NCBI GenBank assembly: GCA_951406725.2
Contig: OX597821.1
Span: 27,900,001 to 27,964,000 of the forward strand
Direction of reading: 5' to 3'
From: Octopus vulgaris
Taxonomy: Eukaryota
Length of the DNA: 64,000 nucleotides
Of this stretch, positions 10,329-63,348 are shown in pieces. Position numbers and translations under genes: made by a program. Below the pieces are notes generated by a model. That model did not search any database. It was not told the origin of the DNA and worked only from the letters and a program-made list of their open reading frames with translations. Positions within the stretch are counted from its first letter, which is position 1. Each line of letters opens with the position of its first letter.

Positions 10329-10419
10329 CAGCAGTAATGATAATAATAATAGTGATGATGATGATAATGATGATGATGATGACGTCCAAAAGTTCTTTAT
10401 TAGGCATATTAAGTCTTAC

Positions 10420-10840
10420 TTAGAATTACAACAAATATTCAAACTGACACTGCGTTCGGACAACAATACTGTAAATTAATTACATTAATTTGGACCTGAT
10501 ATTGTTGTAAATATTTATTACACGACCTCACGGTACATAGGAAAAGAGGGACCGATAGAACGACGACTTTCTGGTTCATTAATCTTAATCAGCAATTGGA
10601 TACCATATATCCTAAAGCTAATTGCGATTTCATATTGGCTTTAGTATAAATGGTATCCAATTGCTGATGAAGATTAATGAAGCAGAAAGTCCTCGTCCTG
10701 TCGATCCCTCTTTTCCTGTTCATGGTAAGGTTGTACAACAAACAATTACGACCGTCTTTTGTATTAAGTTAATAGAATTAATTTATGTAATTATTATACA
10801 AACAAAAGGTCGGCAAGAATATTTTGTTGTAATCCTCACT
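10420..10840. repeat. Long imperfect inverted repeat (hairpin)
   Basis: About 10520-10622 is the reverse complement of about 10633-10737; outer ATTACAACAAATATTC / GAATATTTTGTTGTAAT also pair. Confidence 0.85.
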
Positions 10841-10946
10841 AAACTTTAGTAAAAGAAATAGGCATTTTTTTAATGACGAAAGTAGTAATTTATATATTGA
10901 TAAATGAAAGAATGGTGTCGAACGACGATTTAACAAAATTTCTTTA

Positions 10947-11029
10947 TTCTCGACATATGTTTCGAAGACTGCATATTCTTAATTCCGAAGGAATAAAGGG
11001 TGCATTATGCTGTCTTCTCATCAGGAAAG
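10947..11029 (-). ncRNA. Type-I hammerhead ribozyme motif (Penelope/retrozyme-type), core intact
   Basis: Minus strand: tttc-CTGATGA-GAAGACaGCATA...TATGCaGTCTTC-GAAA-CATATG-TC-gaga. Palindromic stem III ACATATGT, GUC triplet. Confidence 0.8.
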
Positions 11030-11134
11030 ACAAGGAACTTATGTCAGCATCATGACGAACAAAACCTTTTAGATGACTGCCCACACGGAGTCCATAGTGA
11101 TAATCCGTACCAGGATAATTCATTCAACTACTTA

Positions 11135-11193
<59 letters not shown>

Positions 11194-11489: not shown

Positions 11490-13900
11490 TCTGTATTTCT
11501 TTTATTTCAGGTTTTGTTGTAACTCATGGAGTCTTGCAGTCTTACAGGCATCGCACTAGCTACCTGTAGCCTACGGTTACATGCTATCTCTTCTTTTAAA
11601 CTATGTAATAGTTTCCTGATTATCCTGGCCGTGCCAAGAAGGCAAACCTTTTGTGACAGTTCTACTGGGCACTCTATTCCGATTTCCATTATATTCCTCT
11701 TAATACCTTCTGAGACTGTTCCCAAGGACCCAACAATAATTGACACTACCTTCACCTTAATTTTCCATAGCCGTGTTATTTCGTAATTAAAATGGTTGTA
11801 TTTATCTATCATCATCTTTATGAGTGTTTTCTTCTATCAATTGCGTTGCCATTTTTCCCGATATATAGCGCAAGAAAACTCAGTGCATGTATTAATAAGC
11901 CATTACGGTAAACACGATCAGATTGTTTATTTACAAAATCAAATGCAGAGATGGAAAAAAAGAAAAGAAATTTATTTACATGGAAGTTTAGTGTTTTTTA
12001 TTGCGACCATGCTCTTCTCATTATGTGAGATGTACCAGTTAAAACAGCAAGGGATAATTCTGAAACAATTGCTTATTTCGTTTGGTTTTGAATCATTTCT
12101 AGTGCTTCTACAAGGATTGGTATTGCAACTGCTTTCAGATTCCACATTTTTTCGAGTTCAATGAAGAAATTTTTATATTTTTCAGTTAGTCAAATTCCTT
12201 AGTTACAATATTATGATCACAAGCGATACTCATGTCAATCAATAAACAGACCTTATAACGTTGAGCTCTTACAATAATATCCGACTTATTAGTTTTAATG
12301 GTTTCGTATATAATGGAAAGTGCCAAACAATTGTTACAATTTTTCGTTCAGCAAATGTCTGAAGGTGGTGCTTGCACCACCTGTCAACAGTTTTGATTTA
12401 TGCCGACACATAAACTTTTGTATTGTAGATATTGGCCAACTCTGTCATGTCTTGATGTATACTCTACTTGAGTTAAGATTGTACATATAGCGATTAATTG
12501 GGCCACTGCTTCAACCTACACATTGCAGAATCGTTGCTTTGGATCCATTCTCTTTTCTCACATTGGCTTGGTAGTTCCGGATCAACAAGCTTCGATCTTG
12601 AGCAGCTAAGATGAAATCACTACTTTCCTAGTTTTTCGATCTATGCTGACCAGTCCTTCGTTTGTCCATTCCACAACTCCTGCGTAGTAACGGATCACAC
12701 TTTCATCTTACGTGACGATGACTATAATCAGGTTCCATCATTTCAGCTTAGGTCTACATAGATTTTTAACTCTTCTGGTGTATTCAGAATTAATTTTCAC
12801 CTTCATATTGGTGTTCATTTTTTGCCCTAAATATAAAAGATACATATATCACTCTCCATTCACTTCTGTTATGCGTTCATCAACCTGAAGTTGTACTCCA
12901 CTGTTATCTGCTTTAGGCCCTCTCCTCAATAACAGAGCATTTCTCTATACCAAATACCAACTGGAAGTCTTAAGAGAAAATTCGTGTGGTACGAATAATG
13001 GAATCCCGTTGACCTCTGCTAGTTCAAATCATTCATAAACAGAAGCTAATTGATTGGTCTCATATTTTTCTGTAACTTGTAACTAGCTCCCATCTTTCTC
13101 GGAATTATGGAGAGTGGTGACACATGAACAATAAACAATAATAGTGACACAGACTCTCTTCGAAAGATTTACTTCTTCATGTCGACTTGTCCAAGTTCTC
13201 TGCCACATGCAGTCATAACTGGCTTCCAATTAATCATACTGCTTTTGAATAAGTAAATCGTACTCTTAACTACCCTGATCATCTCCAGGCATTTCAGAAT
13301 CCACAACTGAGGAACCACATCATATGCCTTCTTATGGTAAATCCAAGCCAATGATAGGTTTATCAACCTTGTTCGGTAGTTCCTAAAAATTGCCTTAGCA
13401 ATGACAAAATTTCGTTTTTCTTGTGATCTCTTCCTGCAGTCTTTCTGTTCATTCGCTAGCGGTGATTTTTTTCAAGGTGTTATACAATTAATTCTCTATT
13501 TTCACAATTAGAAGCTTCTACATCATAAGTAAACAAGGAATCGGAAGTTAGTTGGTTTGGTCGTTCTGAATGAAGTCAGCTCTTCCTTTGACCATCCATT
13601 CTAGTACAATTCATTGGTGTACACAACCTTGCAGTTCTCTTTTTTCTGTGGTTTAGGATAAAAATTAATTAAAACTTTGAACCAAAAACTTTGGGCGACT
13701 TCTGGGAAAGCTGTCTTCCAATTTCTCATCATACCAAGTGTGACTTGAATATCTTCCGTTGTTATGACAATGTACTCCTATATCTCCAAGTTTTTTTCAG
13801 TTCTTTTTCACTTCATGTAGTCGTGGCGACCTGTTGTTTTATTTTACATACTCTGACCAGATCCTACTCAAAACCTAAGTAGGATTGTTAAATATAACCA
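11490..13900 (-). mobile_element. Degenerate R4/Dong-like RLE LINE
   Basis: RT-like NLSLAWIYHKKAYDVVPQLWILKCL (13169-13366) and RLE C-terminus KVVSIIVGSLGTV...QKVCLLGTARIIRKLL (11507-11815); many stops and frameshifts. Confidence 0.85.
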
Positions 13901-18366: not shown

Positions 18367-18809
18367 GGGCTTAGTAAAATAAATTACTTTGCCACATACT
18401 GAACTCATTAGAAATAGCAGCTAAAGAAATTTCTTCAGCTATTTCTAATACTTAAAGAAGATCTCTCTCAGATAGTGTTTGCCTAAACCAACTCACAAAG
18501 GTATGGGGAAAAAACATTAAAAAATGAAGCGCACTTGATTTTTTAATGTTTTTAATGTTTTTTCCCCATACCTTTGTGAGTTGGTTTAGGCAAACACTAT
18601 CTGAGAGAGATCTTCTTTAAGTATTAGAAATAGCTGAAGAAATTTCTTTAGCTGCTATTTCTAATGAGTTCAGTATGTGGCAAAGTAATTTATTTTACTA
18701 AGCCCTTATATATAATGTAATATTTTGAATTCGCCTAAAATGGTCCCTTTACATACTGAATACTTGGTGAAATTGATTAATAATTAATTAATTTTACCCT
18801 CAATTGTTG

Positions 18810-23757: not shown

Positions 23758-24959
23758 AGTATGTATGTAAATATGTATATACATCTGAAAGGAAAACTAA
23801 TGCCACTGGTATTCGTATATGTTTTTCAGTTTCTTTATGAGTTTTCAAGTGCATCGAGCATAAGTGGTTTGGAATTAGAGTCAGTCAAACAGTAAATTCT
23901 TCATTACACAACTAACTTATGAACTTTACTGTCAGACGAAATATTTTAACGGAATTATTGAACTGAGAGCATTATAAAATATTATCTTAAGTTACATTAA
24001 TCAATAATAGAAGATGCCATGTTCATGTTTTCTCTAGCTCTTTAGAAAACATGAAGCAATACAGTTATTTTCTCTTGTTGATGTATCTATTCCTCTTGCT
24101 AACCATCAAATTTTATTCATTATGATTTTAAGAATATTCCCATTTACTGCAGATGTGTAAAGGCATATTGAAATGCTAAATTCAGACTTAATATATTTGG
24201 AAAATAAAATATATCTCGATAAAGATATAATTAACCTGCTTTATATTCCTTTTAGTCTTTCCGTTTTCGAATTTAATCCCACCGTGTAGCAACTTGGGTG
24301 TCTTCTGGCATTGCTTCGAGCTGGCCAAAATTTTGTGAGTACATTTTGTGAGTAACTGAAAGATGTTTGTCGTATATATGTATCATATATATGTGTGTAT
24401 GTGTGTGTTCGTGGTTGTGTGTGTGTGTGTCTTAATGTCTGTGTAGAAAAAGAACATAGCTTAAAAAGAACGAGTAAAATAATAAAATATAGAAGATAAA
24501 TGATAATTTATTTTGAAATAGGTTTTGTACGCATTTGTTTTACATAATAATGCAGTGAGTGTTTTATTATTTTGTTCAATTGTAAGTTATGGAATAAAAA
24601 GATACTTAATATTTCCAAGTTATAATTCTTTATATATGAATTATTTAAAAATCGTAGGTGTTTTCCTATTATTCGTAGAGAATAGTCATCGGTGTTCATC
24701 ATTTTCGATAATGCTAAAAATGTTTATATTCAGCATTTTTTGGAATATTTTTGAAAAATAACAAATATGGTTATATGGTCAATGTATTCTACCAGAAAAC
24801 CCCAACAGATTAAATCATTCATCGATCAACATTTTCATTGGATAGAACTGATAGAATAATATAAGTCTCACTAACATATAATAATGGATATTCTTTTACT
24901 TTTTTATACATTCCAACCCTAAAGTTGTGGTTATGATGCAGCACTGTCAGTGAGAACAA

Positions 24960-25160
24960 CCCACTAGTCATGTACTGAGTTGGTCCACTTATCTCTGCAA
25001 GATGCATAGAGCTGCTTTCTCGGTTTCTCTGTCAGGTATATTCCTCTCTGGATGGGACACTGGTACGTCACTGTGTTACTCATTTTTACCAGCTAAGTCA
25101 ACTGGAAGAACCTTATTATGGTGTGTCCAACACACTAACGACTAAACCACGAGCCTAACA
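24960..25160 (-). mobile_element. Degenerate SINE with V-like segment
   Basis: Plus-strand CGGTTTC...CTGGATGGGACACTGGTACGTC resembles the reverse of the V core. Confidence 0.5.
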
Positions 25161-25382
25161 CCTTTAATATCTTGGTACAAGATTACCAAATTACAGGTAA
25201 AATGTTACCAAGCCGTCCCTCCTCCATCCTAGTATTTAGGAGTACATAAGGCGGAAAGTATCCGTCAGGACACAAACTTAGATCTTGTGCTGTATAATTG
25301 CAATGTTGTGGAAATTTCTTACAAGTGTTTGTAAAGAAAATACATATATAATAGCATTTGTCTCCGAAATATATTTCACAGT

Positions 25383-26580
25383 GTAAATGCAGGTCAACTT
25401 GGTACCGGTTTCGAAATTTAGCACCAAATAGGTTCCTGATTTCTCATCAGCCAAAGAGTGCCTGCTAAATTACTACTAAAATTCTCCCCCTTCATGCCTA
25501 CAAAGGTTCGTTTGAAGTGACAAAACACTATAGAAACAAACGAAATGTGTACAATTATTTATAAATAAATATAGCGATGGTATCATTAAAATACCATCAC
25601 GAGTGGCAAGCGAATTATCAGCCGTACAGGCAAATTAATAAAATATATACGTACAATATTAGATAAGTACATATATTCACAAGGGTACTACATTAGTACG
25701 TATAACGCTAAAAATAGAAGTTAAAATACTTCTGTACCACCGAATACTCACAAAATTATTAAATATATGGTAGGAAAAACTATCAGTGAACAATAATAAT
25801 GCCTTACATCTACTGGGTCAGAACAAGTAAATGCTGGTCAACTTGGCACCGGTTTCGAAATTTAGCGCCAGATAGGTGCCTGATTTCCTAGTAGCCAAAG
25901 TCTTCCAGCTAAATTACTACTAACATTCTCCCCCATCATGCCTGCAAAAGTTTGTTTGAAGTGACCAAGCACTAAAGGAAGGAATGAAATGTGTAAAATT
26001 ATTTATAAATAAATATAGGGATGGTATTTTTTCTTCTATTTTTAGCGATGTAGGTACCCATGCAGTATCCTTGTGTATATATGTACATATCTAATATTGT
26101 ATGTATATTGTTTTATATTTATTTCCCTATACGGCTGATAATTCGCTTGCCACTCGTGATGGTATTTTAATAATACCATCGCTATATTTATGTATAAATA
26201 ATTTTACACATTTCGTTTGTTCCTATAGTGCTCGGTCACTTCAAACCAACTTTTGCAGACATGATGGAGGAAAGTTTTAGTAGTAATTTAACTGGCAGAC
26301 TTAGACAGATGAGAAATCAGTCACATATTTGGCACTAAAGTTGACGAGCATTTACTAGTTCTGACCCAGTAGAGGTAAGACATTATTATTGTTCACTGAT
26401 ATTTTTCCTATCGTGTCTGCGATAGTTTTAGGACTATTCGGTGGTACAGAAATATTTTTGACATCAATTTTTAGAGGTTTAGGTACTCATGTTATATTGT
26501 ATGTATATATTTTATTAATTTGCCTGTACGGCTGATAATTCGGTTGCCTCTCGTGATAGTATCTTAATAATACCATCCCT
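25383..26580. mobile_element. Hammerhead-containing 444-bp unit in direct and inverted copies (retrozyme/Penelope pLTR-like)
   Basis: 25383-26028 is about 1.45 tandem units (CTTGG at 25398 and 25842). 26030-26580 is an inverted, permuted stretch longer than one unit. Ends at (TA)n. Confidence 0.85.
25398..25456 (-). ncRNA. Minimal type-I hammerhead ribozyme, core intact
   Basis: Minus strand: tttgg-CTGATGA-GAAAT..ATTTC-GAAA-CCGG-TA-ccaag. Stem I TTGG/CCAA, palindromic stem III ACCGGT, GUA triplet. Confidence 0.82.
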
Positions 26581-27895
26581 ATATATATATATGGGGGCGG
26601 GGTCTATGAGGGTTTGCAAGTGTATGTGTAACTTTTCAGTAAGTTTCTATATCTAGATGTATATATGTATACACACACAGACACACAATTTACACATCAC
26701 ACGACTACCTCATACCCCATGTGTTTTAAGCAATTAGTAAGCTCGGAATGCCCACATGGAAACAGGCACCTATATGTCTGTGGCTTTCGACTCACTAAAA
26801 TTACCCAAAATTTGCAAACTTTACAATCTATTAACAAGCAAATTATTAATAGCTATAAATTTCATGTCAATGATTACCATACAAAACTACACCAGTGCAC
26901 TCAATCTGAATTCATTTGGAACAAAAGCTGAGACAAATTGGAAGATGGGAGACTAATAGAAAAGGCCCTTCTTATTTTTACCTTTTTATTTGTTTACTTT
27001 TATTCTTTCCACTCTTGTCCTATTTATTCTTGGGTTTATAATCTTTCTAGTAACATTTTTAACAATGTCCTCTAACTTTACCAATTTACGCTGCACAAAC
27101 TGTGCTCATTATCCCATTTTATCATAATTCAAGGGGTTGAAAGATGCTAAATTCAAGATATCGTATTTATTTAGATTTTTTTTCATCCACTATAGTCATT
27201 GGCTTAAACCATACTACATATATTTATCAGTGCTAACTCTGATTACTGAAAATTCTGTTCAGTATAAATTCATTCTGTTTGAGTATTGCTGACTTGCGAA
27301 CTTTTATCATCGTGTATTGCTATGTATGATCCGGCTGTCAGCCTTGTCCTAGCAAGCTCTTGAGACTAGAAAAGCCATCAAGCAGAGATTACTTGTCACT
27401 GGTAGAGAGGAAGATCCTTGATCTTGATTTGATGGTTGTTCCATTATGGGAGTGTCATTTATCATTCCCTTTGCATACATTTTTAACCCATAAACATACC
27501 TTTGTGTATTTGTAAGTCATCAGATTTTCCTCAAATGAATACGTGAGAAAAATGGCATATGTATCTCAGTTTATTAAAACAAATTCTTGCTGAAGGCCAG
27601 AAAATACTAATATTATCAGATTGAGTAATAATTTAGACTGTCTGTTGCTACTGAGTCAAATTAAAAGACTGGTACATTTTTCCAGTGTCCATTCCTTCGA
27701 AGGATTATTTGTTTAACAAACAGATTGCACTTTATATTTTATCATACATCAGTGTCATTCTCCATCAATTTAGTCCGATCTCTTAAACGGCAATGCTGTT
27801 AACATTGAAATTGAAAAGATGTCTGTTCACACAGAAGAGGTTCTCTGAAAAATATAGAATATTAAAGCTGTCCAATAATTGGGTTGGAAAGATAT

Positions 27896-35257: not shown

Positions 35258-36439
35258 TTACGTTGGCAAGTATAAAATTTGTAGTAAGGTATTTGGTCAA
35301 CTTTGACTGTTGCTAATTTTCTGCCGTTATTATATTTTGACAATCTTTATTTTTTGTTAGAAAGCTGACACCATCATTAAAAGAAAAATCTACCTCATTT
35401 TGCGCTTTATAATGTATTTATATATTGTTATTCGCTATTTTTCTTTAAGTCGGAAATTCATACTGTTCTGAAATTGGTGTTCTTTCTTGGAATTACAGCA
35501 TCACAGACAGCTCAAAATATTAAATGGAGTATTTCATTCTAATGTTATTACGCCGCAGACTGTATCAAATTTCGTTCTGTTAAAATCGACCTTACAAACG
35601 AGCAACGCGGTCGACCAGAAACACAGGTCATAATGACGAACTAAAAGCCACCGTCGAGTCAGATCCATCTCAAAGTGTCCGCGAATTATCGTTGCTGTTT
35701 GGTGATATCAAGGAAACAATATTGTCTCACCTACTTCAAATCGGTAAAACGAAAAAGTTGGATAAGTGGGTTCGATATGAACTCAACAAAAATCAGAAAC
35801 AACGTTTGGAAGCCTGCACTGTGCTAATTTCTCGTCACAAAAATACATCACTTTTGAATCGAATTGTAACATTTGATGAGAAATGTATCCAATACAACAA
35901 CCGTAAATGACCAGCACAATGGTTGGACAAAGACGATCCACCGAAACTGTCCAAACAGCGAAATTCACCAAAAGAAGCTGATGGTATGTGTTTGATCGTC
36001 TGTTGCTGGTGTGATCCATTATGATTTCCTTAAACCTGGCCCATCAATCACGCCCGGAGTATATTGCAGCCACTGGACCAAATGATGCACAAACTTAGAA
36101 AAGAACAACCTAGATTAGTCATCAGAGCCATTCCTATTTTATTTTAACGCAACTCCAGACCACACATCGCGAAACTACAGGAGTTAGAATTGGAAGTTTT
36201 CATCCACCATACTCACCTGATATTGCCACCACTGACTACCACTTCTTCCAGAATTTGGATAACTTTTGATAGGAAAAAACATTCTTTCCGACGATGCTGT
36301 AAAACAGGCCCCCCAAGATTTCATTCACTCTAGATTGCCAGGCTTTTACAGTTCATATTTTGGTGAATAAAACTAGTCATTTTATTTATAAAAGATTAGC
36401 AAACTTTTTTTTCTACAAATTTCTTACCTGACGACCAAA
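35258..36439 (+). mobile_element. Near full-length decayed mariner (Hsmar1/cecropia-like, inferred)
   Basis: KKLDKWVRYEL..RIVTFDEK and HPPYSPDIATTDYHFF motifs, degenerate TIRs ending AAATTTGTAG, TA flanks. Confidence 0.9.
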
Positions 36440-61865: not shown

Positions 61866-62222
61866 TAATAAAAGGGTTCTAATAAAGCAAAGATTTGCTT
61901 CACCACACACCGAAGTTAAGAAATAGCAGCCAAAAATCTTAGCTATTTCTTCTACTTTAAAAAGGGTCTTCCAGAGAAACCAAAATACTTGAAGGTTATT
62001 CAGACAGTATTTTGGTTTCTCTGGAAGACCCTTTTTAAAGTAGAACAAATAGCTAAGATTTTTGGCTGCTATTTCTTAACTTCGGTGTGTGGTGAAGCAA
62101 ATCTTTGCTGAACCCTTTTATTAGTATTACTTAAGTTTGCTGTGTAACGGTCCTTTTTTCATACCGAATTCTACTTGGTGAAATTATTGATTACTTCTTA
62201 ATTAATTAATTTTACCCTTTGT
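61863..62222. mobile_element. Hairpin element in (TA)n, relative of 18366-18810
   Basis: Inverted arms 61863-61989 / 62006-62126 (one mismatch, one 6-bp indel); tail TACTTGGTGAAATT..AATTAATTAATTTTACCCT. Confidence 0.82.
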
Positions 62223-62241
62223 TATATATATATATATATAT

Positions 62242-62525
62242 ATATTAGAAGAAATGAGGCACTCAGAAATTCGGATGGTTTTATATTTACAGATATTTAT
62301 TTGTACATTACATGTTTTTATACATCATATAACTTAGATCTTTCTCCCATTCTAGTGGGTTTTTCATTTCGAACTGTGATGGTAGAAAGCGCTAATATAT
62401 GACCTAAGTTTTATAAAAACATGTAATATACAAGCAAATATCTATAAATATAAAATCATCCGAATTTCTGAGTACCTCATTTCTTCTAATATAAAATACC
62501 TCTACATCATTTCCAAACCTTCCAA
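62242..62525. mobile_element. Hairpin element in (TA)n
   Basis: About 62242-62340 is an imperfect reverse complement of about 62400-62492. Confidence 0.78.
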
Positions 62526-62574
62526 TATATATATATCAAAAACTAAATGGAGTTAAAAGCATGTGTTATCCAAA

Positions 62575-62670
62575 TTCTCTTACAACGATATATGTTTCGA
62601 AAACATCATTACTATTATTCCAAAGGAATAAAATGTTGTAAAGCAATGTAATCTTCTCTTCAGGGAATTG
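62575..62670 (-). ncRNA. Degenerate hammerhead, homologous to 10947-11029
   Basis: CTGAAGA-GAAGAT...TTATTCC-TTT-GGAATAA...TTTTC-GAAACATATATC; stem III mismatch and poor stem I. Confidence 0.5.
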
Positions 62671-62749
62671 AAGAAATAAAATTCGTCAATAAGACATTTT
62701 AACAGAATATGATGGATATGTATAGTGATGAACTAAGCGCTATTAATAA

Positions 62750-63295
62750 TATAATTATCAAGTAGTTAGCGTGAAAAACCTCAGAATGGAAAAATATATT
62801 AATTATTCATTTTAAATATATTTATTTATATTAAGGGCATTACTATACATAAATGGCTCACGGTAGGAGGGACTCTCAAAGACAAAGCTACCATAATAAA
62901 CACATTTTGTACCGATGCGAGGGAATGCAACTCTCGAAGCGAGGCTTTTAAAAACAGATTCAGCTGCAGATCCTATGATTTCATAATTAGTGCACAAAAT
63001 GCACTTTTTAAATCGTCAGTGCATGCATAATCAAGACACATAAAAATGAACAAAAAATCAACGTACCAGACGAACACCAAATGTATCCAGCATTGTACAT
63101 AGAATTGTTCATACATAAATGTGTATAGTACAATGACTTTATTTATTATGGTAGTTTTGACTTTAAAAGTCCCTCCTAGCCTGGGGCTTTTATGTATATT
63201 ATTGCCCTTAATATAAGTAAATATATTGAAGAGAAATACTTCATGGATTTTTCCCTTATGAGGGTTTTTTCGCTAACTACTTGATAAATTCTTAT
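62750..63295. repeat. Imperfect foldback (arms about 62750-62912 / 63127-63295)
   Basis: TTATCAAGTAGTTAGCG / CGCTAACTACTTGATAA, TAGGAGGGACT / AGTCCCTCCTA, CTACCATAATAAA / TTTATTATGGTAG. Confidence 0.82.
62957..63032 (-). ncRNA. Type-I hammerhead motif in the loop of the foldback
   Basis: Minus strand: tgca-CTGACGA-..AGTGCA ttttg TGCACT..-GAAA-TC atag GA-TC-tgca. AUC triplet; base of stem II imperfect. Confidence 0.6.
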
Positions 63296-63348
63296 AAAGA
63301 TTTTATCCTATTTTAAATTATATATATATATATATATATATTTATATA

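Follow-up and report, generated by a model that had tools for sequence, protein, structure and literature searches.

Positions 25383-26592 of the window, by which we mean the whole 64-kb stretch of DNA analysed here, are occupied by about 2.8 copies of a 444-nt non-coding unit that is 33% GC and shows about 14% pairwise difference among its copies, as determined by self-comparison. Unit coordinates are defined such that U1-444 corresponds to 25383-25826. The unit recurs first as a direct repeat with a period of 444 (25383-25583 against 25827-26027, 86.6% over 201 nt) and then as inverted matches (25414-25729 against 26342-26024, 85%; 25561-26031 against 26592-26169, 76.7%), which confirms the direct and then inverted copies of a 444-bp unit described in the original prediction; the 444-nt period was not detected by Tandem Repeats Finder. 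The features of the locus are the following.

25383-25826, ribozyme-sense strand minus: copy A, the full 444-nt unit (U1-444), from self-comparison
25398-25455, minus: HHR1, an intact Penelope-type type I hammerhead with predicted cleavage, from a custom descriptor and folding
25574-25600: 11-bp hairpin (U192-218; z -5.15), a candidate start or stall signal for the reverse transcriptase
25827-26028, minus: copy B (U1-202), in direct tandem to A and ending after the first hairpin arm, from self-comparison
25842-25899, minus: HHR2, with the core broken to CUACUAG and the triplet GUG, stems and palindrome kept, from the sequence
26024-26028: head-to-head inversion junction with a 5-nt microhomology, GTATT, common to B and C, read from the sequence
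26024-26355, ribozyme-sense strand plus: copy C (U347 to U1), inverted, from self-comparison
26301-26345, plus: HHR3 remnant, with the core CAGAUGA and an 18-nt deletion that removes GAAA, the palindrome and the cut site, from the sequence
26356-26584, plus: copy D (U444 to about U187), in tandem to C and with a 29-nt internal deletion, from self-comparison
26580-26592: (TA)6T tract abutting the right end, a likely target site by analogy with the insertions described in PMC8557442

The copies make up two arms, A+B and C+D, each longer than one unit and joined head-to-head, with the ribozyme-sense strand running leftward in A and B and rightward in C and D. Copies B and D together amount to one complete monomer, with an overlap of about 16 nt at the 11-bp hairpin. 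The repeat had been said to end at this hairpin, which holds for both inversion breakpoints, whereas the right end reaches 26584-26592, that is, 6-14 nt beyond, into the TA tract. Similarly, the copies had been called circularly permuted; the phase shift is there, but the arrangement is better read as a continuous 2.8-mer, the 5' part of which is inverted at the hairpin. The pairwise differences (A-B 29/205, A-C 46/329, A-D 34/234, B-C 28/187 and C-D 26/140) and the private differences over 187 columns (14 in A, 13 in B and 14 in C) are star-like, as for copies of one age. An exact inverted match of 42 nt between A and C lies near the hairpin (approximately 25585-25626 against 26131-26172), with only 2 private differences of A in the 92 columns around it; this match may be fortuitous, or it may stem from constraint or from gene conversion of one arm by the other.

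A hammerhead or its remnant is present in all three passes over U16-73, and in one of the three, HHR1, the motif is intact. HHR1 consists of a 5-bp stem I (UUUGG/CCAAG), the core CUGAUGA at 25450-25444, a long stem II closed by GAAAU/AUUUC and followed by GAAA, and the palindrome ACCGGU at 25409-25404 with the triplet GUA and a predicted cut at 25403/25402; stem III comprises one pair and a palindromic tetraloop, a form that requires a dimer. The stems, core and palindrome bear out what had been claimed of copy 1 (an intact hammerhead with a GUA site), and the broken core and GUG triplet noted for copy 2 are likewise found in HHR2. For copy 3, the reported loss corresponds to the 18-nt deletion, to which the previously unremarked change of the core has to be added. 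The hammerhead call rests on a custom type I descriptor, without support from Rfam: the strict form of this descriptor produced two matches in the 64-kb window (25450 and 11024) and none in 100 block-shuffled windows, whereas an Rfam search returned no hammerhead among the six matches with E≤10 in 25300-26700, and no hammerhead family was among the 150 of 173 window-wide matches listed.

Unconstrained cofolding of HHR1 with HHR2 yields a double-hammerhead topology (-34.5 kcal/mol) with stems I and III swapped, in which the intact core 1 faces triplet 2 (GUG) and the broken core 2 faces triplet 1 (GUA). On its own, HHR1 favours a non-hammerhead fold (-13.0 vs -8.6 kcal/mol), and the cofold of HHR1 with itself is a different structure; activity is predicted for the swapped dimer alone. 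Cleavable hammerhead triplets follow the NUH rule, by which neither site of the HHR1/HHR2 double hammerhead is expected to cut. With the intact core opposite GUG and the broken core opposite GUA, the locus would release no monomer or circle, and the model predicts a dead copy, unable to cut or circularise. Moreover, because only one of the three motifs is intact, the locus lacks the two consecutive complete hammerheads that are the rule for an active retrozyme.

The abundance of the unit was assessed by aligning contigs from 4 of the 24 listed runs to 24900-27100 at 80% likeness; organisms C, E and F, which contributed small shares, were left out. For organisms A, B and D, the DNA runs gave a summed contig depth of 48, 46 and 11, respectively, over the unique left flank, compared to 304-29,125, 242-34,525 and 19-1,114 over the element bins, values that are not a copy number. 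The unit is plainly highly repeated, and the multi-copy character ascribed to it in the original prediction is borne out in all three organisms. No RNA run was listed as containing the sequence, which speaks neither for nor against expression. Run X21, guessed to be RNA, provided 122 aligned contigs with cover on other repeats too; it may be DNA and is uninformative. Two other high-copy repeats flank the element, one at 26750-26900 (depth up to 41,937), whose loose ends at 26756 and 26894 recur consistently in three organisms, and one at 25048-25121 (up to 26,506).

Among the positions listed, the majority contig letters restore CUGAUGA over the core of copy 2 (25889, 25891 and 25892) as well as the stem II pair at 25434 in copy 1, indicating that the family has an intact motif at the sites damaged in these copies. 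Joints were found at 25572 in two of the three DNA runs and at the TA end in one. In all three DNA runs, the summed depth decreases from about U186-296, past U444/U1 and across the hammerhead, and is lowest at U112-148, a pattern that resembles 5' truncation and would place the 3' end of the family just past the hairpin; depth from contigs does not allow parts to be ranked and may be inflated in AT-rich sequence, so that this is a weak hint. An orthologous left-flank contig enters the element in A (to 25412) and in B (to 25421; 34 of 516 flank positions different). In organism D, the left-flank contig (63 of 488 different) ceases to match at 25389 and goes on for another 158 letters, which points, weakly, to an empty site and to a target microhomology of 7 nt. 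A first metagenome scan gave no matches. The two matches of a second scan lie in GC-rich contigs, L001 (2035-2080) and L002 (3001-3046), which carry a near-identical stretch with the hammerhead core pattern followed by GUG; they show no homology to the 444-nt unit beyond a 14-nt pattern and were treated as unrelated.

The statement that the unit has no long open reading frame stands: no frame of the locus runs for more than 61 aa without a stop, and the majority sequence contains 5-14 stops per unit in every frame. A coding origin was considered and rejected because a run of 114 codons without shared stops shrank to at most 83 codons on majority letters. No Pfam match was obtained for the locus frames scanned, and the scan of the window frames produced a single weak, unrelated match; neither a reverse transcriptase nor a GIY-YIG domain was matched in any of the 171 non-low-complexity window frames of at least 55 aa (171/171 scanned), a search that is insensitive to decayed pieces. 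The arrangement of an autonomous PLE, with an ORF for both of these domains between pseudo-LTRs (pLTRs), was not found in the locus or among these window frames, nor was a tRNA module. The hammerhead region is no better kept among the copies than the rest (27/138 differences, compared to 14-16% elsewhere), so that the locus, judged by its sequence, appears to be a fossil with no sign of host function.

Two further hammerheads lie in the window. The first, also of type I and of the Penelope type but unrelated, has its core at 11024 (minus strand, within 10411-11192), a long stem II closed by 6 bp, the palindrome ACAUAUGU and GUC at 10952. On one side of it lies a 436-nt fold-back palindrome (10411-10846, 74%) and on the other a (TA)n tract (11137-11192); it shows no similarity to the 444-nt unit. 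A decayed relative of this hammerhead (core at 62663, minus strand, within 62222-63348) adjoins a 253-nt palindrome (62241-62493) and an inverted pair (62755-62900 and 63142-63287), with (TA)n tracts at both ends. Altogether, three hammerhead loci with inverted repeats occur within 64 kb. Among the remaining features, the frames 11510-11833 and 13172-13471 (both minus), which had no Pfam match, resemble pieces of a LINE with a restriction-like endonuclease; for the former, no homolog was found among proteins of similar length. The frame 35584-35910 (plus), without a Pfam match at E 0.01, resembles a fragment of a Tc1/mariner transposase. At 18462-18610, there is a 149-nt near-perfect inverted repeat, MITE-like, that gave a spurious match to an Rfam microRNA.

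The short, low-GC unit, tandem within both arms, has the makeup of a retrozyme; the hammerhead, with its palindromic helix III and predicted dependence on a dimer, is of the PLE type; and the partial tandem with an adjacent head-to-head inverted copy is the architecture of a PLE insertion. It is, in our opinion, likely that the family belongs to the class of non-autonomous, Penelope-dependent hammerhead repeats. More specifically, the locus is probably an old, decayed retrozyme-type insertion of about 2.8 copies, likely produced in a single event by a Penelope-like reverse transcriptase and endonuclease that acted in trans on uncut multimeric RNA. The Penelope mobilisation put forward in the original prediction thus gains from the hammerhead type and the insertion architecture, and not from the window frames, where no such enzyme was matched. 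The copying from a template longer than one unit, also put forward there, is borne out: if one arm had been made on the other, 645 nt would have been needed with 461 available, or 607 with 347 available, and since neither arm can template the other, a more-than-unit template is needed for both. For the same reason, fold-back self-priming of one arm on the cDNA of the other, which has been proposed for the palindromic inverted junctions of PLEs (PMC3846280) and would agree with the microhomology at the junction, is rejected as hardly credible unless part of one arm was lost later, all the more so as B resembles C no more closely than it resembles A.

At its left end, the repeat continues for 20 nt after the predicted hammerhead cut, implying that the template was uncut or re-ligated there. 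The following route could have produced the arrangement. A tandem master locus would be transcribed through several units, and a helper protein, acting as described for the anole PLE (PMC11167929), would cut both strands of AT-rich DNA and begin reverse transcription at an internal site of the RNA, not where the ribozyme cuts. Priming of one strand would take place at the TA tract, immediately 3' of the 11-bp hairpin, with D and then C being copied, and that of the other at U1, with A and then B being copied as far as the hairpin; the two cDNAs would then join head-to-head via GTATT, the junction seen in the sequence, in an inversion of the twin-priming type, and the copies would subsequently decay to their present divergence. 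Alternatively, the order on one RNA may have been B, A, a 97-nt gap, C and D.

We give this twin-priming route an even chance. The points against it are that no target-site duplication of at least 7 nt is present at the locus, that no tail-sized offset separates the outer ends, which are about 260 nt apart in unit phase, and that a later inversion yields the same order of the parts. A TA tract is seen at the right end only. In favour of the preferred reading as a whole, B and D end together at the hairpin and have in common a G at U193, a position occupied by C in copies A and C; counting against this reading, the coincidence of the ends has a chance probability of only about 0.08, and the G is a single site.

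Within the same class, the template could have been a monomeric circular RNA, reverse-transcribed in rolling-circle fashion from two primers for about 1.4 rounds each, which is possible albeit rather unlikely. Each arm is longer than one unit and repeats at 444 nt, and the arm lengths, as well as the star-like distances among the copies, fit a circle equally well; the monomer folds better than shuffled sequences (z -2.98), and the circle is the published model for animal retrozymes (PMC7229834). However, a circle alone explains neither why the inner end of B meets the outer end of D nor the G at U193; furthermore, the hammerhead is of the PLE type, with its low activity in vitro (PMC4209133), and the anole PLE uses uncut RNA as its main template (PMC11167929).

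We consider it improbable that the unit belongs to an autonomous element of the Penelope/Neptune type, as its pLTR, and that the locus is a cluster of truncated pLTRs and no non-autonomous family of its own. Most PLE hammerheads are indeed single or opposite-strand motifs from truncated PLEs (PMC4209133), and Penelope-like families are described as abundant in octopus genomes. Nevertheless, the arms here pass from unit to unit at the period of 444, with no coding DNA between the hammerheads, and only 5-12% of the aligned contigs continue into unlike sequence.

Finally, a plain direct tandem (A, B+D, C) might have come first, with a later genomic micro-inversion, one break of which fell at the hairpin, flipping D+C. 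This would give an identical order of the parts and agree with the lack of a visible target-site duplication, and hairpins and TA tracts are fragile. Such an inversion would, however, have had to stop exactly at the end of the repeat; two other hammerhead loci in the window also adjoin inverted repeats and TA tracts; and PLE insertion itself regularly gives rise to head-to-head inversions (PMC8557442, PMC3846280). Overall, a later inversion appears decidedly improbable. The insertion of a multimeric, uncut transcript, primed on both target strands, is the most economical account and is retained as the preferred reading.

The mechanism by which animal retrozymes are mobilised is described as remaining to be elucidated (Li, Clavereau and Pollet 2026, bioRxiv 10.64898/2026.07.22.740005), mobilisation having so far been deduced from co-occurrence and phylogeny. 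A non-coding hammerhead unit that bears the marks of Penelope insertion, with two arms of more than one unit and both breakpoints at one hairpin, links retrozymes to Penelope insertion directly. Because the family is high-copy, the choice between a circular and a linear multimeric template can be tested by counting ends. A more far-reaching and doubtful proposal is that the family represents a circular-RNA retrozyme copied by the Penelope machinery, which a hairpin would guide to a fixed start some 280 nt downstream of the ribozyme, with priming on both target strands. If that were true, the genomic copies would be a direct record of animal retrozyme insertion, no such family would have been characterised in a cephalopod before, and its thousands of ends would decide between a circle and a linear multimer as the template.

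The class itself, the derivation from Penelope pLTRs, opposite-strand hammerhead pairs and head-to-head inverted insertions have all been published already. In the literature covered, which includes few subscription journals and none of the repeat catalogues (Repbase, Dfam and the O. vulgaris library), no such family is described in a cephalopod; the family may thus already be catalogued. The term "ribozyme" does not occur in two cephalopod repeat papers, and 235 hammerhead-1 hits are counted in the giant squid genome paper.

The closest likeness is to the non-LTR retrozymes (Cervera and de la Pena 2020, PMC7229834), tandem non-coding units with type I hammerheads that are expressed as circles, with lengths of about 170-400 nt (350-390 bp in mussels). 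The similarity extends to the short, AT-rich, non-coding tandem with one type I hammerhead per unit, to the many genomic copies, and to the proposed status as non-autonomous PLE derivatives; retrozymes have also been derived from PLE pLTRs, with units of 51-972 bp (Li, Clavereau and Pollet 2026). Non-LTR retrozymes differ in having a canonical 6+4 bp hammerhead, in contrast to the PLE-type long stem II and short stem I of the locus; inverted arms are a feature of the locus, and the word "inverted" does not occur in the text of PMC7229834. In vitro, one of nine predicted Xenopus retrozyme dimers was cleaved (Li, Clavereau and Pollet 2026), a low rate of success that, by analogy, would count against the preferred reading.

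The PLE hammerheads have a long helix II, a helix I of 4-5 bp and a palindromic helix III, and form pairs 100-700 bp apart on opposite strands (PMC4209133). HHR1 matches this anatomy except that no unpaired base separates its positions 9 and 10.1, as is described there. The hallmarks of PLE insertion include a partial tandem, an adjacent inverted, 5'-truncated head-to-head copy and (TA)n targets (PMC8557442, PMC3846280), and the protein of the anole PLE cleaves AT-rich DNA on both strands and extends the two, starting inside the RNA at a stem-loop (PMC11167929). The locus resembles these EN+ PLEs (Penelope/Poseidon and Neptune; PMC4209133, PMC3846280, PMC8557442, PMC11167929) in the palindromic helix III and the dimer dependence of the hammerhead, predicted in the present case, in the partial tandem with a head-to-head inverted copy at what is likely a (TA)n or AT-rich target, and in ends away from the ribozyme cut, one of which is beside a stem-loop. 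It differs from them by the lack of an ORF for reverse transcriptase and GIY-YIG, by having both arms longer than one unit, by an outer-end offset of about 260 nt, where inverted insertions of standard PLEs have a "tail" of 30-40 nt, and by a hairpin end about 280 nt downstream of the cut, compared to about 90 nt in the anole PLE.

The non-autonomous PLEs of Chlamys, such as MRC1 (PMC8557442), are likewise non-coding derivatives with pLTRs and multicopy head-to-tail insertions, but they are algal, most lack hammerheads, and their 3' homology to an autonomous partner is known; the palindrome motif is absent from one supplementary text file of this source. Twin or dual priming of L1 (PMC2837659) provides the parallel of two opposite cDNAs that derive from a single RNA, are primed internally at microhomology and become joined 5'-to-5', and differs by its poly(A) start and target-site duplications, neither of which is found at the locus, where the template would have been multimeric. 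Compared by structure to all these systems, the locus appears to be neither an active copy nor an autonomous PLE and has the organisation of a retrozyme-type parasite of Penelope.
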